Shown here piece by piece: positions 5,508 through 39,793 of a stretch of 64,000 nt of DNA. Position numbers and translations under genes: made by a program. Origin of the DNA: an uncultured Gammaproteobacteria bacterium (GTDB taxonomy: Bacteria; Patescibacteriota; Patescibacteriia; Magasanikbacterales; GWA2-37-8). Position 1 is the first letter of the stretch. Each line of letters opens with the position of its first letter. Where the stretch lies: NCBI GenBank assembly GCA_964511375.1, contig CAZEEW010000002.1, forward strand, positions 36,157-100,156, given 5' to 3'. The notes beneath the pieces were generated by a model, which made no database searches, was not told where the DNA came from, and saw only the letters and a program-made list of their open reading frames with translations.

Positions 5508-7137
5508 AATTCTCGTTAACAGTATTTAATAACGAATATACTTTCTGTTCCCCCATACCTTTAAGATGCAAAGTCCTTTCTTCATACTGGAATTTCTCCA
5601 TTAAGAAGTTTTTTAACTCCCGACCCAAGAGTATTTCGTTTTTTTCGGCATTCTGACACAACCGGGCGGCGTAGTTTACAGTTTCGCCTAAGAAATCCCA
5701 GATCCGTTCATGCTCGGGTCCCACTTCCCCGGAAATAAATTCACCGTATTCTAAACCTACTCGCAGTTGCCAGCCCATCTGGTTAACTAGAGATACTAAT
5801 TTCTGCGCCGCCTCGAGCGCATTTACACACAGAGCCGGGTAATCCTCGTCATCTTTGTACCCACCAAAGACAACCATAATTCCATCGCCTAGATATTTGT
5901 AAACCCAGCCACCGCGTGACTTAACCACACTGTTAGACAGATCAAAGAAACGATTTAAGTCATTTAACATTTCAGTAATGTTGGCGGCCTCATGTACACG
6001 ACCCGAAAAATTGACTAGGTCAGCAAACAAAACTACACCACGATTACGACTCGGTGGCAATTTTTTTGTCGTCATGAGATTAACCAGATCTTCTGGCAAG
6101 TGTGAAGCAAGAATTTGGCTTAGTTGGTTTTTTAATTTTTCAACCTGTCGTTTTTCGTCAGTGATAATCTTGTTTCGCTCTTTAATGGTTTCTTCTAATT
6201 CCTGCGCGTAACTTTGAAAGTAACTAATGCGCTCTTCCAGGTCTTTAAAAGAAACATTAGTTTTTGCAAAAGGATGGGCCAAATTTTTTAGACGCTGTGT
6301 AAAAGGTAAATGCTCCCAACTAATTTTAATAATAAAATACGGCACGTTATATATTTGCCCGGGAATAAGTAGAGGATAGGTTTTATACCAGAGTTCTTTG
6401 GTAATAAGCACACCTTTAGTGGCAAATGGACTTTCGACCGGTTTGGTTTTGCCAAGGCATAGTGAGCCGAGAGAAGTTTCTTCGTTTACCAATTCGACGA
6501 CCTCACCGTAGACCGTATCTTCAATGTACAGTTTATCGTTTCTAAGTTCAGCAAAGATTTGGAATTGGTTACGAAGGAGTTTTACCACATCATATTGCAA
6601 GATTACCTCCTCAACTCTAGCCGGAGGTAAATTCCAGATCTTTGGTAAGCTGGAAAAAACACCTTTCACAAGTGGGCCAGAGATAAAGTCTTCTTCAATG
6701 TCTATACCGCCTCGGAAGCGTACGCGCAGGTAAGCCATGTTCTGGCCGCAAGAAATTACCTCCATGTACTTGGTTCGGTTGAAAAACTGGTTGTATTCAG
6801 GAATTTTTTTAATAACAAAACTGGGATCGGCGAAAGTCGAACCGATTAGCCTCTTCAAAATCTCGACAATGCCAAGCCCCCCTTCCTCAGTGGCCAAAAG
6901 CCCAATCTGGTAAAAGATGTTTGGGTCGTTGTCGATTAAATGCTGAACCCGACTGCAAAGTTTTAAGAAAGTAGGAAGCGAAATCCAATGATCAGGGTTT
7001 TTTAAATAGTCGGCAGGGTAGCCTAAATTATCTAAAATGTCATTTTCAGATAATCCTTTTTTGCGACAATATGTTAGTACAAGACCAACATTACGGTTGC
7101 AAACCAAAAGCTCCTCCTTTTCGTAGGATTTCTCCAT
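5497..7137 (-). CDS. Class III adenylate/guanylate cyclase domain protein with unknown N-terminal domain
   Basis: C-terminal cyclase homology domain: VVLFADLVNFSG … KYLGDGIMVVFGG … NYAARL. Confidence 0.7.
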   Translation of the reverse strand: MEKSYEKEELLVCNRNVGLVLTYCRKKGLSENDILDNLGYPADYLKNPDHWISLPTFLKLCSRVQHLIDNDPNIFYQIGLLATEEGGLGIVEILKRLIGSTFADPSFVIKKIPEYNQFFNRTKYMEVISCGQNMAYLRVRFRGGIDIEEDFISGPLVKGVFSSLPKIWNLPPARVEEVILQYDVVKLLRNQFQIFAELRNDKLYIEDTVYGEVVELVNEETSLGSLCLGKTKPVESPFATKGVLITKELWYKTYPLLIPGQIYNVPYFIIKISWEHLPFTQRLKNLAHPFAKTNVSFKDLEERISYFQSYAQELEETIKERNKIITDEKRQVEKLKNQLSQILASHLPEDLVNLMTTKKLPPSRNRGVVLFADLVNFSGRVHEAANITEMLNDLNRFFDLSNSVVKSRGGWVYKYLGDGIMVVFGGYKDDEDYPALCVNALEAAQKLVSLVNQMGWQLRVGLEYGEFISGEVGPEHERIWDFLGETVNYAARLCQNAEKNEILLGRELKNFLMEKFQYEERTLHLKGMGEQKVYSLLNTVNENYEN

Positions 7138-7242
7138 AAAGTCAATTATTGTCCACTCGGTATATTACTGCTTTTTAGTGGAAAACACAATATACAATTT
7201 GTCAACTTTCGCAGAAAGAAGCGATGTGTTAAAATATATCCA

Positions 7243-8055
7243 ATGTTAAATTATCATTTATATATGAAATACATTGCAAGATTGGGGTTAATAATAGGTG
7301 TAGTGTTATTGCTCGGTGCTTCTTGTGTTCCACAAGGGAATCAAGTACCAAGAACGAATACTCCTGTAAACAATAATGTAGCAAGCACAACAGACTCAAA
7401 TTCTGTCAATTCTGAAGTGCGTAACTCTGCTCCAACTGTTACGGGTTTACCCAAAGCGACTACAACTAGACCAGTAGTTAAACCCGTTACAACTTCCACT
7501 AATCCCTTGCCCTGCAATTCAAATGCTCAGTGTGTGTCTGGTAAGTTGTGTGTTAATAGCGAGTGCGTTCCAGCGGAAACGGTTCTACCAAAAGATCCAG
7601 TAACTGGTGAATTGCTCTGCAACAACAATGCCCAGTGTATTCCTGGGAAGCTTTGTGTGAACCAACACTGTGTACCAGCTGAGACCGCGCTCCCCACCAA
7701 TACCACCACCGGACAATTGCTTTGTAGTAATGATGCCCAATGTGTCCACGGTAAGGTTTGTGTTAATGGGAATTGTGTGGCTTCTTCTACAACTTCAAAA
7801 AGCTTGCCATCAGTTACTAATTGCTCATCAGATAGCCAGTGTAAAACCGGCGAAGCTTGTTTCCAGGGACGATGTACTACTGTGCCAGCAACCTGTAAGT
7901 ACCATACGGAATGTTTAAGCGATGATTATGTTTGTAGTAACGGGACCTGTGTTTGGCCAGGCTCAAGTGGTCATACTTGTCAGAATTCTTCCGGTGAAAG
8001 ATGGCATTGTCTGAATACCCAGAAGTGTGGAGTCAAAGAATTTGAGTGTATATAA
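7243..8055 (+). CDS. Secreted/lipoprotein-like cysteine-rich repeat protein
   Basis: N-terminal signal/lipobox-like LLGASC; S/T/N-rich linker; 3-4 tandem ~35-aa repeats CxxxAQCxxGKxCVNxxCV; alternative start at M8 (7264). Confidence 0.65.
   Translation: MLNYHLYMKYIARLGLIIGVVLLLGASCVPQGNQVPRTNTPVNNNVASTTDSNSVNSEVRNSAPTVTGLPKATTTRPVVKPVTTSTNPLPCNSNAQCVSGKLCVNSECVPAETVLPKDPVTGELLCNNNAQCIPGKLCVNQHCVPAETALPTNTTTGQLLCSNDAQCVHGKVCVNGNCVASSTTSKSLPSVTNCSSDSQCKTGEACFQGRCTTVPATCKYHTECLSDDYVCSNGTCVWPGSSGHTCQNSSGERWHCLNTQKCGVKEFECI
7510..7810 (+). repeat. In-frame degenerate tandem repeats (~105 bp x3) encoding the Cys-rich modules
   Basis: tgcaa(t/c)…aatgc(t/c)cagtgt…ggtaag(t/c)t(t/g)tgtgt(t/g)aa repeated at ~7510, ~7615, ~7720. 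Confidence 0.7.
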
Positions 8056-8068
8056 TTTATCGTAAAAT

Positions 8069-8105
8069 AAACACACCACCAGCTAAACTGGTGGTGTGTT
8101 ATATA
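8069..8105. terminator. Hairpin acacaccaccag/ctggtggtgtgt after Cys-rich gene; start of GC-rich islet 1
   Basis: 12-bp perfect stem, short loop. Confidence 0.5.
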
Positions 8106-8217
8106 CTAAATTCCTGTTCACGCGTATCTCCTTGTTATTCCCCCAAAACTTTAGGAAAATAACGGGCGGCGCGAACGAGGAACTTCGAGGTGGAGAATGC
8201 CACCCGTTGGCGATCGG

Positions 8218-8478
8218 TCAGTAGGTGTAACCTAGCTGCCGACGCCGTTCAGCTTCCGCGCGACGCTCGCGCTCCGCCGGTGCGAGCTTTTCGCACCGCG
8301 GGAGGAGGTTGCAGTCGAAGCAGGTCGACTGGACCTGCCCACCCATGGCGCGGGTGACGCGCTCGACGAAGTCGTGGCACGGGCTGTTCTTCAGTCCGCC
8401 GGCCCTCTTCCTCTCTTGGCCGGCCTTCCTCGTGGCTTCCCGGACTCTCTCGCGAGCCCGCCGCTGTTTCGCTCCCAT
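8218..8478 (-). CDS. GC-rich islet 1: small Arg/Lys-rich protein with Cys cluster (putative zinc-ribbon), 86 aa from ATG (TTG-extended ORF to 8529)
   Basis: ~65% GC segment 8150-8545 in a ~40% GC genome; GGAG 5 nt upstream of ATG; C-x17-C-x2-C-x5-C. Confidence 0.45.
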   Translation of the reverse strand: MGAKQRRARERVREATRKAGQERKRAGGLKNSPCHDFVERVTRAMGGQVQSTCFDCNLLPRCEKLAPAERERRAEAERRRQLGYTY

Positions 8479-8578
8479 GGCTTCTCCATGCACCCAGTAA
8501 ACCGGGGTGCCTCGGTGGACAATATACAACCACTATTTTATCTTGTTGTCAATTGTTTGTTTGCTGGGCTAACTAGGT

Positions 8579-18564: not shown

Positions 18565-18741
18565 ATAGTTTATTAAATAACCAGTTAATCATATTACTGT
18601 AAAGACAGAAAAAAATCAACAATTTTTTCATTAAAAAGTCAAATTTATGGTCCACTAGCGTTGACTTATTGTACACCTGGGTTACTGTACTAAAATGGTA
18701 TGACTTCGTAGTCCCAGCGCAAGCTGGGGGAGGAGTACAAC

Positions 18742-19656
18742 ATGTGGTGGGTTTTCGTGGCTGCCGTTTCGGCTGCTGTCGGTCAGCCTCCTGACGAGTG
18801 TTGGCAACCGGCCCGAGCCGCGCTGGAATCAGTCGGCGCTGTCTGGACCGGCACGCAGCCAGACGACACCCGTGTCGGCTGCCGTGAGGTGGTCGACGGA
18901 ATGTGGGGATCCTGGGAGTACACTGAGGAGAAGCTGGCCCGCTCAGCCGAAAGAGACGGTTGTCGTGGAGCCAGAGTGCTCCATAGGAGCTATGCTGCTG
19001 GACCCGCCGGGTGCAGTGTCATCTGTGTGCGCCTCAAGTGTTACGCCGAGGATGTTGACCTGGCGCCGGAGATGGAGACCGGCATCGACGAAGTCACGCT
19101 CCTCGCTCTCCTCAGGAAATCGGAACCTGAGGAGCAGCTTCCTGAGGAAGACGACTACGCATCTCTGGAGGCTGCTTCGGAAGAAGCGGTCCACCCAGAC
19201 GAGGAGGAGCTTGTTCCTCCAGACCCTCCGTCTTCGGAGGATCCAGCTCGGCTCGCCGGCGACATGACTGGGCTGGCGGTTCTCCTCGAGAGACAGTCCG
19301 GGTCGTCCGAGACTGAGATGCGCTTTCCTCGTCGGAACGCGAAGCTGGCTCAGCCGGTGTATGAGCCGGAGCCTATCGCTGACTCGGTCGTGGCCGAGGC
19401 GAATCCTCAGCCAATTGCGATACTCGAGCAGGCTCCCTCAGTGCCGGAGTCCCCGCTGCCGGCTGCTTCCCCCGAACTTCGTGCGTTCCAGGTGGAGATT
19501 GGGGGTATGATCGACGAATTTCGCCGCTCGCGTGAGTCTCTCAGGGAGAAGCGGCGGGAGATGCGGGAACGTTCCCGCGCCATTCGCGATGACTGGCGGC
19601 GCAAGCGTGACGCTTTGCGTTTCCAGACTCGCCAACTCGGGGCAGCGCGTCCTTGA
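18742..19656 (+). CDS. GC-rich islet 2: 304-aa Pro/Glu/Arg-rich hypothetical protein
   Basis: ~63% GC block 18716-19735; GGAGG 8 nt upstream of ATG while native genes lack SD; hairpins after stop; no recognised domain. Confidence 0.4.
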   Translation: MWWVFVAAVSAAVGQPPDECWQPARAALESVGAVWTGTQPDDTRVGCREVVDGMWGSWEYTEEKLARSAERDGCRGARVLHRSYAAGPAGCSVICVRLKCYAEDVDLAPEMETGIDEVTLLALLRKSEPEEQLPEEDDYASLEAASEEAVHPDEEELVPPDPPSSEDPARLAGDMTGLAVLLERQSGSSETEMRFPRRNAKLAQPVYEPEPIADSVVAEANPQPIAILEQAPSVPESPLPAASPELRAFQVEIGGMIDEFRRSRESLREKRREMRERSRAIRDDWRRKRDALRFQTRQLGAARP

Positions 19657-19825
19657 AGGGGCAGCTGTCCTTCGCCCCTCGATCTGAGGTATCGGGTCGA
19701 GGGCTGTGTCACGAGCGTCAAATGTTTTGGCTCTGGTGAAACCGTATTCATACACAGTTAATACACACAATTTTCGTTGACGAGACGATATATTTTGTTA
19801 TAATGATGAGGTAATTATTGAATTT

Positions 19826-20308
19826 ATGAATAATAATCAATTGGATAGGGTTTTACGCTTAGTTAAGCGAACAGGAGACAAGGTGGTTGTTTTAGATCGT
19901 GCGAGCGATGCGGCAGTAGTACTCATGGATCTAGATGATTATGAATTATTACTAGAGGAAAGTTTTACGAACGATGGCGTTGGTCCTACGAATTTAGACA
20001 ACGATTCTTTCGCTGACTGGGAAATAGACGATGCACACAATGAAGATCAAGAGACTGAAGAAATAGCTCATGAAGACACAGATGAACCTCTAGCCCCACT
20101 CGATACTCTTGAAGAAGAGTTACCTTTAGAATCCTTCGAAAAGGAAGTTGCTGAACACGGTGACGGAGTAGGAGAAGATCTGGTGGCTGAGCCTATAGTT
20201 GAAGCATTGCCAACTCAAGATAGAAATATTTCGCTAGACAAAGAGGAAAAAATAGATGATTTGCCTGACGACGGCGAAGAAGAGCGCTTCTATTTAGAGC
20301 CGGTTTAG
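19826..20308 (+). CDS. Acidic protein with Phd/YefM-antitoxin-like N-terminus and long D/E-rich tail
   Basis: N-term DRVLRLVKRTGDKVVVLDRASDAAVVLMDLDDYELLLE resembles Phd/YefM fold; no adjacent toxin. Confidence 0.4.
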   Translation: MNNNQLDRVLRLVKRTGDKVVVLDRASDAAVVLMDLDDYELLLEESFTNDGVGPTNLDNDSFADWEIDDAHNEDQETEEIAHEDTDEPLAPLDTLEEELPLESFEKEVAEHGDGVGEDLVAEPIVEALPTQDRNISLDKEEKIDDLPDDGEEERFYLEPV

Positions 20309-31391: not shown

Positions 31392-32666
31392 ATGTGGGAA
31401 AAATTTAAACAAATTTGGCAGATTAAGGAATTACGAAACAAAATCTTATTTGTTCTTGCTCTTTTAGTTGTCTTCCGTCTGGTTGCTCATATTCCGATTC
31501 CTGGTGTAAATGTAGAGAATCTACGTAACTTTTTCCAAAGCAATCAGTTGCTTGGATTATTGAATGCGTTTACCGGTGGTACGATGGAAAACTTTTCTGT
31601 AGTCATGCTTGGTGTTGGCCCTTACATTACTGCTTCGATCATCTTCCAGCTTTTAGCGATGATCGTGCCGAAACTTGAAGAAATGACCAAAGAAGGCGAA
31701 TCTGGACAACAGAAAATTAACATGTACACTCGCTGGCTTACTGTTCCCTTAGCTTTTCTACAGGCTTATAGCATGATCAAGTTGTTAGGCCAGTCTTCTC
31801 AACCAATCATTGGAAATCTCGATACTTTCCAGTTTATTACTGTCATGTTAACCATTACCGCTGGTACCATGTTTCTTATGTGGATCGGTGAAATCATTAC
31901 TGAACAAAAGGTTGGTAATGGCATCTCTCTTTTAATCTTTGCTGGTATTGTGTCTGGTTTACCTGGCGCTGTACGTAATGTTTTTTTGAACTACACCTCA
32001 GCTGACCTTTACACCGTCATTCTCTTTGCGGCTATTGCGGTTCTAACTGTTGTTGGTGTTGTATTCATTAACGAAGGTCAAAGAAATATTCCGGTTAGCT
32101 ACGCTAAACAGGTCCGTGGTAACAAGATATATGGTGGTTCTAACACTCACTTGCCAATGCGCGTTAACATGGCTGGTGTTATCCCAATCATCTTTGCTAT
32201 CTCTTTAGTTTTGTTCCCGCCGATGATCGCACAATTCTTTGTAAACGCGAGAACGGCGTGGGTTGCTAACCTGGCTGAATGGGTTATTACTACTTTCCAG
32301 AATCAAGTTTTCTACGCTATTGCTTACTTCTTACTAGTTTTTGGTTTTACCTATTTCTACACTGCCGTCGTATTTCATCCTCAGAAGATTGCTGAGAATT
32401 TGCAAAAGCAAGGTGGTTTTATTCCTGGTATTCGACCGGGCAAAGAGACTGAGAACTACTTACATCGCACCATGAATCGCATTAACCTAATCGGAGCATT
32501 GTTTCTGGGTGTAATCGCCATCCTCCCTCTTATCTTACAAGGTGCTCTTGGTACACAAAGTCTAGCCATTGGTGGTACCAGTTTGCTGATCGTGGTGGCT
32601 GTTGCGATTGAAACAGCTAAGCAGATCGAAGCCCAGGTAACAATGCATGAGTACGATAGGATATAA
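31392..32666 (+). CDS. secY: Preprotein translocase subunit SecY
   Basis: 10-TM protein, position after L15. Confidence 0.95.
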   Translation: MWEKFKQIWQIKELRNKILFVLALLVVFRLVAHIPIPGVNVENLRNFFQSNQLLGLLNAFTGGTMENFSVVMLGVGPYITASIIFQLLAMIVPKLEEMTKEGESGQQKINMYTRWLTVPLAFLQAYSMIKLLGQSSQPIIGNLDTFQFITVMLTITAGTMFLMWIGEIITEQKVGNGISLLIFAGIVSGLPGAVRNVFLNYTSADLYTVILFAAIAVLTVVGVVFINEGQRNIPVSYAKQVRGNKIYGGSNTHLPMRVNMAGVIPIIFAISLVLFPPMIAQFFVNARTAWVANLAEWVITTFQNQVFYAIAYFLLVFGFTYFYTAVVFHPQKIAENLQKQGGFIPGIRPGKETENYLHRTMNRINLIGALFLGVIAILPLILQGALGTQSLAIGGTSLLIVVAVAIETAKQIEAQVTMHEYDRI

Positions 32667-32694
32667 TGACAAGACAGAACTAAAACTAGAAATC

Positions 32695-32735
32695 AAAAAC
32701 CCAGTACTATATAGTGCTGGGTTTTATTGTTTCGG
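32695..32735 (+). terminator. Terminator after secY (aaaaacccagtact-atat-agtgctgggttttattgtt); near-duplicate after asnS
   Basis: Stem + T-run; same frame aaaacccag…ctgggttttattgt as 37478-37512. Confidence 0.6.
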
Positions 32736-32741
32736 TTTATA

Positions 32742-32797
32742 CTTCTCGACTCTCCAGAAAAGTCTATCTTAAACTTCTCTGGAGTCCAGTCGAGAAG
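32742..32797. repeat. Imperfect ~20-bp-arm inverted repeat (cttctcgactctccaga … tctggagtccagtcgagaag) at edge of GC-rich islet 3
   Basis: Seen directly; no T-run, so not an obvious terminator. Confidence 0.5.
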
Positions 32798-32834
32798 CGC
32801 GGGGTGAAGGCGCGACGCGTCTGTCCTCCGCCCC

Positions 32835-33125
32835 TTAGGTCAAGAATGCCTCGAGCAGGGCTCTGACGATCGTTCGTCCGAGCTGGTTCTGCAGGGTCGG
32901 CATTGCCGAGCCCGTCATCCCGGCTAGGAAGAAAATCGCCGCAACCGCACCGAGCGCTACCCCGGTAAGGGGAGGGTGCGGAGGGTTCTTGAGTCCGTCG
33001 TTAATCGCTGCCGCAGTTGCGACAGCAAGCGTCAGTGCTCCTAGTACGGTCCAGATCATATTCTTTCCTCCTCTTGTTTCCGTTGCGAAACAGCCAACTT
33101 TATCACAAACTCCGCCCATTGTCAA
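32835..33125 (-). CDS. GC-rich islet 3: small two-TM membrane protein (74 aa from ATG at 33059 with AGGAGG SD; longer 96-aa ORF to 33125)
   Basis: ~62% GC block between secY and adk; strong SD; two hydrophobic helices with G/A-rich faces. Confidence 0.45.
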   Translation of the reverse strand: MTMGGVCDKVGCFATETRGGKNMIWTVLGALTLAVATAAAINDGLKNPPHPPLTGVALGAVAAIFFLAGMTGSAMPTLQNQLGRTIVRALLEAFLT

Positions 33126-33147
33126 GTCTAAAAACCTATGGTATAAT
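33119..33147 (+). promoter_or_regulatory. Sigma70-like promoter for adk (TTGTCA-17-TATAAT)
   Basis: ttgtcaagtctaaaaacctatggtataat. Confidence 0.5.
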
Positions 33148-33225
33148 CCTTTTTGTTGGAAATTAGGCTAAATATAGCCCATGCCCCTTTTGGGGCGTTT
33201 TTCTTTCAGAACATTAATTATTATC

Positions 33226-33885
33226 ATGAAAAAAGTAATAATTCTTATCGGTCCTCCTGGATCAGGTAAAGGTACGCAAGCTAAGAGATTGGCGGCTAAG
33301 TTTAGGTATGGACATATATCCACTGGAGATTTACTGCGTCGTTTAATGACGAAAGGAAATAACGAACCAGAAATTGAAGTAATCTTAGAAGAGGTGCGCT
33401 CCGGTAAACTTGCTCCTGATTGGCTTATTTACAAACTTGCCTTTGAAGAAATGGATAAATATCTAGACGAAGATAAAGGAGTTGTCCTAGACGGTGCAAT
33501 TCGTAATACACTCCAAGCAGAAAAGTACGAAGAATATTTTAAAAATAAAAATTTGGAAACCGAAGTGGTGGCAATCGAGATTGCTTTGTCCGACGAAGAA
33601 TCTTACAAGCGTCTAACTCGACGCAAGGTCTGCAACGGTTGTGGGGATATTGTTACCTGGACAAAATTTACCGGTCAGGTTGAAAAGTGTATTAAGTGTG
33701 GTGGCAACTTAGTCATTCGCATGGATGATAATCCGGAAACAGTGAAGAAGAGAATAGCGAGCCAAGGGAATGCTGCTATGGCCCCAATTGTCGATTTTTA
33801 TAGCAATCTAGGCCTGTTACAACGTGTTGATGGAGCAGTTAGCATCCCTGAGGTGGACAAACAAATCGAACAAGTGTTACAGTAA
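33226..33885 (+). CDS. adk: Adenylate kinase (zinc-lid type); ORF also open from 33181
   Basis: MKKVIILIGPPGSGKGTQA; lid CNGCGD…CIKCGG. Confidence 0.92.
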   Translation: MKKVIILIGPPGSGKGTQAKRLAAKFRYGHISTGDLLRRLMTKGNNEPEIEVILEEVRSGKLAPDWLIYKLAFEEMDKYLDEDKGVVLDGAIRNTLQAEKYEEYFKNKNLETEVVAIEIALSDEESYKRLTRRKVCNGCGDIVTWTKFTGQVEKCIKCGGNLVIRMDDNPETVKKRIASQGNAAMAPIVDFYSNLGLLQRVDGAVSIPEVDKQIEQVLQ

Positions 33886-35118: not shown

Positions 35119-35850
35119 ATGCAAGCCATTATCTTGCGTCGCCAAGATTTCCGGGAATATGATGAGATTATTACGTTATACACCCTAGAAGGAGGCAAAG
35201 TAAACGCCCTGGCGAGAAGCGTAAAAAAAATTACCAGTAAAAATTCGGCTCATCTTGAGCCTTTTTCTTTAGTCGAAGCGGAGATTATTAAGGGCCAGGA
35301 AGTCCAACATATTATTAAGGCCCGCGGTTTGAATATCTTCTTAGGCTTAAGAAACAATCTTAAGAAAATGTCCATGGCGGCATTTATTGTTCATCTTTTT
35401 GACCAGCTTTTAGAAGTGGGGGAAAGAGATGAACAGCTTTTTTATCTGCTGCAAAGTTGGTTGGAGTTTCTGGATGTTTGTCATACTCCAAATAATATCC
35501 TAGTTTTAGGCTTAGAGATTAAGTTACTGCAACGCTTAGGTTTTACACCAATTCTCGACGACTGTGGCTTGGACCATGAGCGCCTTGGAGAAACTAATTT
35601 CTTTTTTTACCCAGCTGGTGGGATGTTGCTTTGTGAAAGTTGCGCCAAATTTAAAAGACAAAGCAACGAGGAATTGGTTGTTTTTAATCGAGGTCTTCAA
35701 GATGGTTTGAAAGTTTTGTTATATGGTGATTGGAAGAAAATTAGTGAATTAACTTTGAGCGAAAAAGAGATGAAGCACTTAGAAATTTCAGTATACTTGT
35801 TTTTGCGTTACCACACAGAGAAAAAGATTATAAGATTTAAAGGAGTTTAA
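35119..35850 (+). CDS. recO: DNA repair protein RecO
   Basis: N-terminal OB region MQAIILRRQDFREYDEIITLYT, CxxC zinc motif. Confidence 0.8.
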   Translation: MQAIILRRQDFREYDEIITLYTLEGGKVNALARSVKKITSKNSAHLEPFSLVEAEIIKGQEVQHIIKARGLNIFLGLRNNLKKMSMAAFIVHLFDQLLEVGERDEQLFYLLQSWLEFLDVCHTPNNILVLGLEIKLLQRLGFTPILDDCGLDHERLGETNFFFYPAGGMLLCESCAKFKRQSNEELVVFNRGLQDGLKVLLYGDWKKISELTLSEKEMKHLEISVYLFLRYHTEKKIIRFKGV

Positions 35851-35858
35851 TTAGAGAA

Positions 35859-35880
35859 CCCCACGACCGTGGTCGTGGGG
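35859..35880. terminator. Perfect GC hairpin ccccacgacc-gt-ggtcgtgggg after recO; edge of GC-rich islet 4
   Basis: 10-bp perfect stem; no T-run. Confidence 0.45.
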
Positions 35881-35906
35881 GCTGTGGGCCTTGCGCTTGG
35901 ACGGGT

Positions 35907-36041
35907 TTAACCACCACAAGCTGCTCGCAGGGCCAGGACAATAAATCCGACGATGATCAGGGCGCCAATCGCCCTAAATATCCCGCCGAAGATGAGGCAG
36001 ATCAGGCCGAGCGCAAACCCGGCCAAAAACCAACTTAGCAT
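35907..36041 (-). CDS. GC-rich islet 4: 44-aa hydrophobic single/double-TM peptide (MLSWFLAGFALGLICLIFGGIFRAIGALIIVGFIVLALRAACGG); below the ORF-track size cutoff
   Basis: GGAGG 5 nt upstream of ATG; ~62% GC; translated by hand. Confidence 0.4.
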   Translation of the reverse strand: MLSWFLAGFALGLICLIFGGIFRAIGALIIVGFIVLALRAACGG

Positions 36042-36153
36042 TTGTCCCTCCTAGTCGCCTTATTGAATTTTATATCATTCTATCCTCTTCAGCAAAACTT
36101 GCTAAAATTAGCGAAAAATGGTAAGCTAAAAAGGCTTTAAGCTTTGAAAACAT

Positions 36154-37477: not shown

Positions 37478-37512
37478 AAAACCCAGCGCTAATTGCACTG
37501 GGTTTTATTGTG
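37478..37512 (+). terminator. Terminator after asnS (aaaacccagcgc-taatt-gcactgggttttattgt)
   Basis: Near-duplicate of secY terminator. Confidence 0.6.
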
Positions 37513-37525
37513 TTCCTTGATCTTA

Positions 37526-37583
37526 CGCTTCGCAGTTGATCTGAAATAACAATTGTTATTATCTCAGACCGACACTGCGAAGC
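37526..37583. repeat. Inverted repeat cgcttcgcagt … actgcgaagc enclosing a perfect 16-bp palindrome AATAACAATTGTTATT (37545-37560)
   Basis: Seen directly; operator-like symmetric site at the edge of GC-rich islet 5. Confidence 0.6.
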
Positions 37584-37612
37584 ATCGGACGCGCACACGC
37601 GCATGTTGGGGA

Positions 37613-38002
37613 TCAGAATCGGAGGGGGGTCGATGCCAGCTTGTCCCGTAAGTCCTTGAGGACCTGGTTTCGGTAGGGGAAGTACTCTGACCCGGTGCTG
37701 AGCTCGAGCCACATGCACCGCTCGCCGTGCTGTAGGTAGACTTCTACCGCGTCGTTGGAACAGCTTGGTGCACACCAGGGATCGATCTTGTACATCTCTG
37801 GGATGCGATCGAAGCTGTTCTCCAGCGCGTAGAAGACACCCTTGTCACAGTAAGACTTGACGACGAGCAGACGCCCTTCAGTTTGCGAGCGCAGAACTTG
37901 GTTGCTCTCGCGGTACAGCCGTGGACAAAACCACCCGAACAAGAACCAGATCACCGCGATCGTCGTCGCCGTCTTCATCGCCGCCGAGGTAAGCCTTTTC
38001 AT
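37613..38002 (-). CDS. GC-rich islet 5: 129-aa signal-anchored/secreted protein with 4+ Cys
   Basis: GGAG 7 nt upstream of ATG; N-terminal hydrophobic MKTATTIAVIWFLFGWF; ~60% GC. Confidence 0.45.
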   Translation of the reverse strand: MKRLTSAAMKTATTIAVIWFLFGWFCPRLYRESNQVLRSQTEGRLLVVKSYCDKGVFYALENSFDRIPEMYKIDPWCAPSCSNDAVEVYLQHGERCMWLELSTGSEYFPYRNQVLKDLRDKLASTPLRF

Positions 38003-38119
38003 CACTTAACTCCATGCGCCATCCAGGCGCTCTGTTGTCGAGGAACAAGTGATTATAGCAAAGAGAGAGAGAGTTGTCAAGATGGTCTAACAGAATTGTC
38101 TTTAATATTACCCAAAAAA

Positions 38120-39132: not shown

Positions 39133-39705
39133 TTAATCTTTGACTAGTTTAATCAATTTAATAAAAATGTCAGTATTTTTTGAAATACGAATATTATATC
39201 TAATTTTACCTTTTGTTTTGATTTTGTAAAGATGTGCTGGTATAGAAAGAGATTCTAACATTTTCATTACATCTCGAGCTAAGTTAGGTATCATAGACAC
39301 AAAATTTACCATTTTGTATCCTCTGTCGATATATATTGACCCGTCTGTTTGGAATAAACCACGTAAACATTCAATTACTGTTTGTTCCTTTTTCATAATC
39401 CAGGTTGGAACCGACACTCCTTGTTTTTCTTTTGATCCACCTAGGGTTTTCCAGCCTAATAAACTTTCCCATTTGTTAGAATAGCAGCTTATATCTTTGC
39501 AATTTCTTTTAATGTTAATTATGTTAACTTTATTCCTTGGCATAAATGATCTTAAGGAATCGGCTATTGTTCGGATTAAATTCGGGTACTTAAGATCACA
39601 GGAAATTCTAAGACGGACCGCCCTACGATTAGGGTTAGAAAGATTGCCGTCCCCAAGTGCAAGGCCGGTAATATACGCCAGAAGCTTTTCCTCCTTTTTA
39701 AGCAT
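39133..39705 (-). CDS. Free-standing double-motif LAGLIDADG homing endonuclease
   Basis: Two LAGLIDADG motifs: LAYITGLALGDGNL and LRGLFQTDGSI; 190 aa; starts 7 nt after tRNA-Leu 3' end. Confidence 0.8.
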   Translation of the reverse strand: MLKKEEKLLAYITGLALGDGNLSNPNRRAVRLRISCDLKYPNLIRTIADSLRSFMPRNKVNIINIKRNCKDISCYSNKWESLLGWKTLGGSKEKQGVSVPTWIMKKEQTVIECLRGLFQTDGSIYIDRGYKMVNFVSMIPNLARDVMKMLESLSIPAHLYKIKTKGKIRYNIRISKNTDIFIKLIKLVKD

Positions 39706-39711
39706 AAGTCG

Positions 39712-39793
39712 TGCCGATGGTGGGAATCGAACCCACAGGCCTTACGGCACACGATTTTGAGTCGTGCATGTTTACCAATTTCATCACATCGGC
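39712..39793 (-). tRNA. tRNA-Leu (anticodon CAA), type II with long variable arm
   Basis: Hand-folded: acceptor GCCGATG/CATCGGC, anticodon stem CACGA/TCGTG, loop CTCAAAA, variable hairpin GCC-GTAA-GGC, T-arm GTGGG-TTCGATT-CCCAC; CCA not encoded. Confidence 0.75.

Follow-up and report, generated by a model that had tools for sequence, protein, structure and literature searches.

Within the 64-kb stretch of DNA analysed here (the window), the spacer between secY and adk contains a segment rich in guanine and cytosine (GC), islet 3, which is probably a self-contained, replaceable, moron-like accessory cassette lying antisense between its two neighbours, with a long hairpin acting as an RNA element of its 3' untranslated region (UTR). 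The imperfect inverted repeat that a preliminary description of this DNA had placed at positions 32742-32797 is best read as the conserved 3'-UTR stem-loop of a family of such cassettes. This reading draws on the layout of the unit, on the replacement of its coding part in relatives, on a sister cassette at another locus of the window and on the conservation of the hairpin.

An antisense unit in the secY-adk spacer

The window has a mean GC content of 41.6%, and its ribosomal protein genes of the S10/spc cluster are followed by secY, adk and map; homologues of its SecY are recorded under Candidatus Magasanikbacteria, Patescibacteria. Between the end of secY at 32666 and the start of adk at 33226 lies a spacer of 559 bp. 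GC content reaches 65% over 32800-32999 (about 60-65% for islet 3 overall). Read along the minus strand, the unit runs from a promoter through about 30 nt of 5' UTR, a Shine-Dalgarno site, a 74-codon open reading frame (ORF), a short hairpin and the long hairpin to a terminator. The features of the spacer are listed with the source of each call in brackets.

32696 to 32725, both strands: bidirectional intrinsic terminator, AAAACCCAG..CTGGGTTTT, with an A-tract before it and a T-tract after it (terminator scan and fold)
32742 to 32797, minus strand: the reported inverted repeat, a long bulged stem-loop in the 3' UTR of the antisense gene, at the left edge of the variable segment
32800 to 33115, no strand: segment wholly unlike the spacer of the L007 group of relatives, comprising cargo ORF, 3' trailer, 5' UTR and -10 box (blastn of spacers)
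32801 to 32834, minus strand: short GC-rich hairpin immediately after the ORF stop (minus-strand fold of 32730-32840 and palindrome search)
32835 to 33059, minus strand: ORF of 74 amino acids (aa), with its ATG at 33059
33067 to 33071, minus strand: Shine-Dalgarno site GGAGG, with the ATG 7 nt downstream (read from the sequence)
33097 to 33125, minus strand: predicted cassette promoter TTGACA-17-TAAAGT with a TG extension, 10/12 consensus positions (promoter scan, match to the sigma70-type consensus)
33119 to 33147, plus strand: predicted adk promoter TTGTCA-17-TATAAT, 11/12 (promoter scan)
33181 to 33205, plus strand: terminator-like hairpin with a T-run, located in the adk leader between the adk promoter and the ATG, about 20 nt short of the latter (fold and scan)

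The terminator folds at -18.7 kcal/mol (z = -6.2) and is predicted to end secY transcripts on the plus strand and the cassette transcript on the minus strand. Its motif, AACCCAG-N-CTGGGTT, occurs exactly twice in the window (0 expected), adjoining the hairpins of islet 3 and islet 5, and was found in the L007 group too. At the opposite end of the unit the -35 boxes of the cassette and adk promoters overlap, and backbone homology with relatives restarts at 33119. Minus-strand transcription of the unit would extend from about 33090 to about 32696.

The preliminary description had set the repeat between the secY terminator and the islet, and the terminator and the GC-rich segment indeed lie on either side of it. 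Its further statement that the repeat bounds the islet has to be given up: its two arms are found together to one side of the GC-rich segment, so that the structure is a stem-loop and not a pair of terminal repeats, namely a single hairpin 3' of the antisense gene. The small antisense ORF between secY and adk, 74 aa long with two hydrophobic segments, is present as described. An alternative 96-aa form does exist as an ORF, but its TTG start coincides with the opening base, 33125, of the -35 hexamer in the predicted cassette promoter; this form is unlikely because its start lies upstream of the inferred transcription start and hence off the predicted transcript.

The predicted 74-aa protein has hydrophobic segments at about residues 1-20 and 31-50, plus a C-terminal helix. 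AlphaFold2 placed helices at 2-24, 31-48 and 54-73, with a predicted local distance difference test score (pLDDT) of 69.7. Among 5.8 billion proteins the sequence matched itself alone, and it had no match in Pfam, PHROGs, PADLOC, NCBIfam or PDB sequences. Nothing significant emerged from a viral structure search (best fold match E = 0.83). Viral contigs contained no match for three cargos, the single L019 match being an 18-residue chance match, and phage and plasmid collections gave no DNA match. An exhaustive search of representatives returned only long TPR_10/12-CHAT proteins, and these via summed weak stretches: these were matched in 3-8 stretches each, and phmmer reached E = 9e-11 only by adding up 5-8 weak ones. 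The summed score was 57.6 bits versus a maximum of 40.2 in 2000 shuffles; the best single stretches scored 28-33 bits, barely above the 24-27 bits of unrelated islet controls, and Pfam TPR models gave no match to the protein at E <= 1. The cargo may have descended from a TPR gene fragment, an unproven lead. We infer that the product is a small envelope protein of strain-specific use, which might serve, for example, in phage exclusion or in contact with a partner cell.

Cargo in relatives and at a second locus

Members of the SecY cluster and SecY homologues were a more productive source of relatives than scans of genomes and metagenomes with Adk, which gave few. In L001-L003 SecY falls in the same 90%-identity cluster (representative 95% identical) and backbone DNA is about 82% identical; L014 to L029 are more distant relatives, with SecY 75-79% identical. 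Relative to L001-L003, homology ends at the secY stop codon and restarts at 33119. The secY-adk spacers of the relatives are as follows.

L001, L002, L003, L006, L010 and L011: 736-742 bp, GC-rich antisense ORF of 126 aa
L007, L008 and L009: 1126 bp, GC-rich antisense Cys-rich ORF, called as 239 aa and about 249 aa long from an upstream ATG
L014: 920 bp, antisense 87-aa ORF with a Shine-Dalgarno site
L021 and L022: 838 bp, equivalent unit in plus orientation, 146 aa
L026: 859 bp, antisense ORF of 66 aa, in which inspection showed two hydrophobic segments
L027 and L028: 673 bp, plus-strand ORF of 143 aa, Cys-rich and lipoprotein-like
L024 and L025: 237 bp, terminator and long AT-rich hairpin, no ORF
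L020: 77 bp, terminator alone
L029: 117 bp, empty

The spacer is thus tight in L020 and L029 and holds cargo in most of the others, from which it follows that a tight junction exists in the clade and that the spacer is a hotspot. This agrees with the preliminary description, which had called the junction normally tight and any insert notable; the comparison with relatives that it had proposed found the hairpin kept and GC-rich inserts there too, and so did not refute it. We infer the direction of change, insertion versus deletion, from the tight spacers of L020 and L029 and from general bacterial gene order. Similarity to the L007 spacer in blastn was confined to 32691-32799 (75%; terminator and long hairpin) and 33116-33201 (81%; adk promoter and leader). 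The closer relatives have promoter modules as well as hairpin/terminator modules homologous to those of the window. Terminator type, hairpin type and cargo combine differently among the relatives, and the modules are therefore mosaic. Cargo would be replaced through recombination in the conserved sequences on either side, and its left breakpoint would be the hairpin base.

The 126-aa and 239/249-aa cargos are membrane-anchored and Cys-rich. No family match was obtained for the six cargos scanned (74, 126/130, 239/249 and 87 aa, and two peptides of the islet 4 type); the L021, L026 and L027 cargos either have no Pfam match on record or were not scanned. When L001 was compared with L011, housekeeping genes were 88-91% identical and the cargo ORF 93.4%, with 9 synonymous and 12 non-synonymous codon changes, and the hairpin was 98.5% identical against the 88-91% of the backbone. 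These identities would fit a recent cassette exchange plus constraint on the hairpin.

Islet 5, a sister cassette in the window, is homologous to the secY-adk cassette of the L001 group and shares its terminator motif with islet 3. It lies downstream of asnS and not between secY and adk.

37478 to 38080, minus strand: islet 5 cassette
37525 to 37586, minus strand: hairpin, homologous to that of islet 3
37613 to 38005, minus strand: ORF of 129/130 aa
38052 to 38080, minus strand: predicted promoter, 12/12 consensus positions, with a (CT)6 spacer

The proteins encoded by the islet 5 ORF and by the 126-aa cargo of the L001 group are 58% identical, and the cassettes share 71% DNA identity over 580 bp, hairpin and promoter included. 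Substitutions in this sister cargo family number 32, 28 and 54 at codon positions 1, 2 and 3, a coding-type pattern; the AlphaFold2 model of the sister cargo was unusable (pLDDT 43.7). At the islet 5 site, L006 carries a different gene that is not GC-rich and L024 has no spacer.

Promoters of the sister family carry a (CT)n tract between -35 and -10. We compared those at 38052-38080 (minus strand) in the window, 7895-7921 in L001, 2876-2906 in L011 and 4156-4184 in L026: n varies from 5 to 7, so that promoters otherwise homologous have spacers of 15 nt (n = 5), 17 nt (n = 6) or 19 nt (n = 7), and the window copy in islet 5 has the optimal 17-nt spacer. This predicted arrangement is the classic layout of slipped-strand phase variation, and the differences were seen between assemblies.

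The window contains five GC-rich islets, at 8148-8540, 18694-19747, 32760-33062, 35837-36060 and 37555-38052. GC content at third codon positions (GC3) is 0.62-0.77 in islet ORFs (0.67 in the 74-aa ORF) and 0.76-0.85 in the cargo of relatives, versus 0.31-0.41 in backbone genes. A GGAG/GGAGG core precedes five of five islet ORFs versus 3 of 64 backbone genes (hypergeometric p ~5e-6 by our own arithmetic), and the predicted promoters are near-consensus (islet 3) or perfect (islet 5). In nearly all of the 64 backbone genes the base preceding the ATG is a T, with A/T-rich sequence around it. Since translation of the other host genes begins with no Shine-Dalgarno site, the cargo may have its origin in a genome where these sites are in use; it may also need the site because its GC-rich mRNA is structured. 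In the sister cargo GC3 is 0.77-0.85 in two genomes despite a base difference of 29%, so the high GC content is not simply fading to the host value. It might be kept up by cassettes that circulate as a pool, or by GC-biased conversion if the site is a recombination hotspot.

Some further observations concern the slot and its annotation. In L024 a 108-nt AT-rich hairpin (7338-7445) with perfect 17-bp arms, TTCCAATGTCAAATCAA/TTGATTTGACATTGGAA, follows the terminator with no cargo gene, and may be an empty slot or a remnant. Within 7085-7300 L014 has two structures besides its antisense ORF: a branched one of 131 nt (-57.8 kcal/mol, z = -5.7) and a GC hairpin of 46 nt. Gene callers disagree on identical GC-rich spacers: L007 has a minus-strand call of 239 aa, L008 and L009 a plus-strand call of 218 aa, and the 126-aa gene is called in L011 with no gene called in the L010 spacer. 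Database annotation of the cassettes is for this reason unreliable. On the adk side, L001 and L011 share 97.8% identity in the leader (backbone ~89%), and in L020 the secY terminator stands at the same distance from adk as does the 33181-33205 hairpin here. That hairpin, for which Rfam gave no match, may represent the terminator that secY had ancestrally, or else an attenuator.

The long hairpin and the readings it allows

On the plus strand the repeat forms a perfect 10-bp outer stem, CTTCTCGACT/AGTCGAGAAG, plus a 7-bp inner stem. The minus-strand RNA has the 10-bp outer stem, a 3-nt bulge and an inner stem of about 12-15 bp. RNA folding of 32742-32797, which the preliminary description had suggested as a check, gave -26.8 kcal/mol (plus) and -34.1 kcal/mol (minus), with z = -6.8 and -7.2, and 0 of 200 shuffles folded as well. 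The repeat is real and its stated position exact. It ranks among the window's most stable 70-nt hairpins of moderate GC content, the rest of which adjoin islets 1 and 5. Lacking a U-tract, the long hairpin does not qualify as an intrinsic terminator in its own right; a gap of 16 nt separates it from the terminator downstream.

Homologous hairpins are present in islet 5 and in the L001 and L007 groups. The left ends of three cassettes with different cargo align over the terminator, about 15 nt, and a hairpin outer stem of the form GCTTCNC.../...GNGAAGC. A covariance model built on five copies of the hairpin and run against 190 kb found no copies beyond its own five, and for this reason the hairpins of islet 1, L021 and L026 are to be called structural analogues and not demonstrable homologues. 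In the model alignment 7 of 23 pairs had changed on both sides, and 83% of cells were paired versus about 47% with slid partners. The strand in the sense of the cargo was the more stable as RNA in six of the seven hairpins, L026 being the exception.

Islet 3: cargo-sense -34.1, other strand -26.8 kcal/mol
Islet 5: cargo-sense -35.9, other strand -26.0 kcal/mol
L001: cargo-sense -34.7, other strand -21.9 kcal/mol
L007: cargo-sense -36.2, other strand -33.9 kcal/mol
Islet 1: cargo-sense -34.5, other strand -21.3 kcal/mol
L021: cargo-sense -36.0, other strand -32.9 kcal/mol
L026: order marginally reversed, -36.7 versus -37.7 kcal/mol

In L021, where the cassette is inverted, the hairpin is inverted along with the cargo. 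The strand-stability and orientation data favour a hairpin that acts in the cassette transcript. Its probable roles there would be the protection or processing of the 3' end and the insulation of the convergent secY and cassette transcripts from each other.

Several points weigh against the cassette reading as a whole. The codon-position GC signal of the 74-aa ORF (0.64/0.51/0.67) is weak, long ORFs arise by chance in GC-rich DNA, and the protein is a singleton. Promoter, Shine-Dalgarno site and terminator are consensus matches alone, and the covariation comes from just four different sequences, whose alignment was itself fitted to the covariance model. The stability advantage of the sense strand is equally compatible with a single-stranded DNA intermediate, and the position of the hairpin exactly at the left breakpoint of the variable segment is also compatible with a role at the DNA level. 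No mechanism for the movement of cassettes between loci was identified.

In a rival reading the long hairpin would be a DNA recombination site, recognised as folded single-stranded DNA by a recombinase or HUH-type enzyme encoded elsewhere; cassettes would be excised and inserted at hairpins of this kind in a dispersed exchange, integron-like or IS200/IS605-like. The base of the hairpin is the left boundary of the variable segment, and one hairpin family is joined to three unrelated cargos at two loci. A lower stem, a one-sided bulge of 3-5 nt and an upper stem recur in the non-homologous hairpins of L021 and L026; the hairpin is conserved at 98.5% versus about 89% for the backbone; the L001 and L011 cargos, at 93.4%, are closer than the housekeeping genes, which suggests recent exchange; and L024 retains a terminator and long hairpin without cargo. 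In the attC sites of integrons the stem base carries two conserved cores, R'' (RYYYAAC) and R' (GTTRRRY). Islet 3 resembles an integron cassette in having, downstream of the ORF, an imperfect inverted repeat with bulges that is conserved in structure more than in sequence, a resemblance that is structural only, and in that unrelated ORFs, mostly encoding proteins without known relatives, go with one kind of hairpin. However, the stem base of islet 3, CTTCTCGACT/AGTCGAGAAG, has no AAC/GTT cores on either strand, and the cassettes are not in an array but are single scattered units with predicted promoters and terminators of their own. No integrase, recombinase or transposase was seen in the window in a partial inspection (the ORF list by eye and Pfam on 10 unassigned ORFs; not exhaustive). 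There is no hairpin at the right end and no target-site duplication, and the right boundary is simply the -35 box. We consider a DNA site of this kind unlikely. A miniature inverted-repeat transposable element or insertion sequence differs likewise, as there is no matching repeat at the right end and the hairpin family has only two copies in the window; in a search for dispersed repeats the reported repeat was unique in the window and no repeat family of at least 18 nt was found. Target-site duplications or IS608-like TTAC/TCAA ends were rejected as coincidence: a TTAC stands before the hairpins of islet 5 and L001, but those of islet 3 and L007 have none there.

The remaining alternatives concern the gene. 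The preliminary description had likened the 74-aa protein to membrane toxins or holins, in which case it would be a type I toxin-antitoxin toxin or a holin-like peptide whose mRNA the hairpin stabilises or regulates. Small size, two hydrophobic segments and a C-terminal helix would suit such a protein, as would the intergenic position, the structured 3' UTR and a bidirectional terminator common with the convergent transcript. It nevertheless has no homology to a toxin or holin family and no significant viral fold match, and there is no endolysin or other phage or lysis gene nearby. The sole plus-strand promoter candidate for an antisense RNA partner (9/12) lies inside the terminator loop and has, by reading, no evident counterpart in the islet 5 terminator, so that no such partner was identified. 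Equivalent slots in relatives hold anchored proteins with Cys-rich ectodomains of 126-249 aa, which are not toxin-like; the proposed likeness is thus very improbable. The GC-rich segment could instead be a non-functional foreign remnant or a gene for a non-coding RNA, the 74-aa ORF being there by chance. The ORF is a singleton with no homologue and weak codon-position periodicity, other long open frames overlap it, and its only similarity, the weak one to the TPR_10/12 repeats of TPR-CHAT proteins, may mark a gene fragment. Yet no other frame combines an ATG with a GGAGG 7 nt ahead of it and a suitably spaced near-consensus promoter, and the layout of promoter, Shine-Dalgarno site and ORF is common to all five islets. 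The substitutions in the sister cargo family are of the coding type (third position 54 versus 32 and 28). A scan with Rfam gave nothing significant in 32600-33300, and in the whole window three tRNAs alone reached gathering scores. A remnant or RNA gene therefore retains a very slim chance in our estimation.

A more far-reaching proposal is that Magasanikbacteria possess a dispersed, hairpin-guided cassette system, in which promoter-equipped, GC-rich, Shine-Dalgarno-bearing genes without known relatives would be drawn from a shared mobile pool, exchanged at conserved bulged hairpins by an enzyme encoded elsewhere, placed in intergenic sites even within the ribosomal-protein/secY/adk cluster and in some cases switched on and off by (CT)n tracts in their promoters. 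We offer this as speculation and think it quite unlikely to hold. A full-text search of the literature found no description of such cassettes in bacteria of the Candidate Phyla Radiation (CPR).

Known systems and the remaining islets

Phage morons, among them lambda lom and bor, invite the closest inspection here. A moron has its own promoter and terminator and a GC content unlike that of its neighbours, and lies between genes that are adjacent in related genomes (PMC3594210); the first example, HK97 gp15, is a small inner-membrane superinfection-exclusion protein (PMC3594210). Islet 3 similarly has its own predicted sigma70 promoter and intrinsic terminator, deviates in GC content and sits between genes adjacent in relatives, and as in morons the cargo is often a small membrane protein. 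In contrast to morons, it is located in the ribosomal-protein/secY/adk cluster of a CPR chromosome and not in a phage or prophage, it has a conserved long bulged hairpin between ORF and terminator, and its cargo is replaced within a conserved frame of promoter and hairpin; no phage relatives were found.

Flexible genomic islands of the replacement type also hold different, unrelated genes at one position in close strains, and homologous recombination in the flanks would be compatible with both. The slot described here is tiny by comparison (one gene, 0.3-1 kb), lies within one of the most conserved bacterial gene clusters and keeps expression signals around a variable ORF, and its cargo is GC-rich and bears Shine-Dalgarno sites. 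In phase-variable promoters such as those of Haemophilus hif and Neisseria opc and porA, a simple-sequence repeat lies in the spacer between -35 and -10. The (CT)n tract of the sister cassette family has the same position, whereas the islet 3 promoter lacks a repeat tract; the differences observed are between assemblies.

The genomes of CPR bacteria are tiny, and for many of these organisms a life attached to other cells is assumed. If the cassette reading is correct, the secY-adk locus illustrates a compact route to surface variation between strains: single-gene expression slots inside the most conserved operon region, which keep the promoter and the 3' hairpin and terminator while the coding part is replaced by unrelated, putative small envelope proteins. 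The composition of the cargo (GC3 up to 0.85) and its Shine-Dalgarno signal are foreign to the host, and raise testable questions on its origin, on the upkeep of its GC content and on a selective use of the signal by the host ribosome, whose own genes lack Shine-Dalgarno sites. The hairpin-guided system, if true, would give episymbiotic CPR bacteria a gene-cassette platform of a new kind, serving surface proteins that differ from strain to strain. On the practical side, annotation pipelines call the cassette ORFs inconsistently.

The other islets of the window are the following.

8111 to 8540, antisense: islet 1, upstream of rpsL, with a GC-rich ORF of 86-103 aa, very basic, with a CFDC...C motif
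18694 to 19747, plus strand: islet 2, the largest, with an acidic, GC-rich 304-aa ORF, a GGAGG site and a GC-rich 3' hairpin
35837 to 36060, antisense: islet 4, a GC-rich gene in the recO-asnS gap

Islet 1 matches islet 3 in layout. Its sense-strand 3' hairpin at 8110-8186 (-34.5 versus -21.3 kcal/mol), which has no sequence homology to that of islet 3, is followed by a bidirectional terminator at 8070-8100. The 304-aa ORF of islet 2 has no relatives in its 90%-identity cluster; just downstream, the gene at 19826-20308 encodes an N-terminus weakly like Phd/YefM antitoxins (E = 1.7e-4, below the Pfam cut-off).

Peptides encoded in the recO-asnS gap are 43-47 aa long and hydrophobic, and all end in ACGG; their genes have a GGAGG-like site and are followed by a GC hairpin. 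One copy is present in the window, two in L001 (10690-11125) and two in L007 (9496-9932), and in L020 the gap is 4 bp. A free-standing 190-aa ORF at 39133-39705 (minus strand), adjoining tRNA-Leu at 39711-39793, contains a LAGLIDADG-like motif, LAYITGLALGDGNL, and weakly matches the intein/homing-endonuclease parts of intein-containing NCBIfam models.

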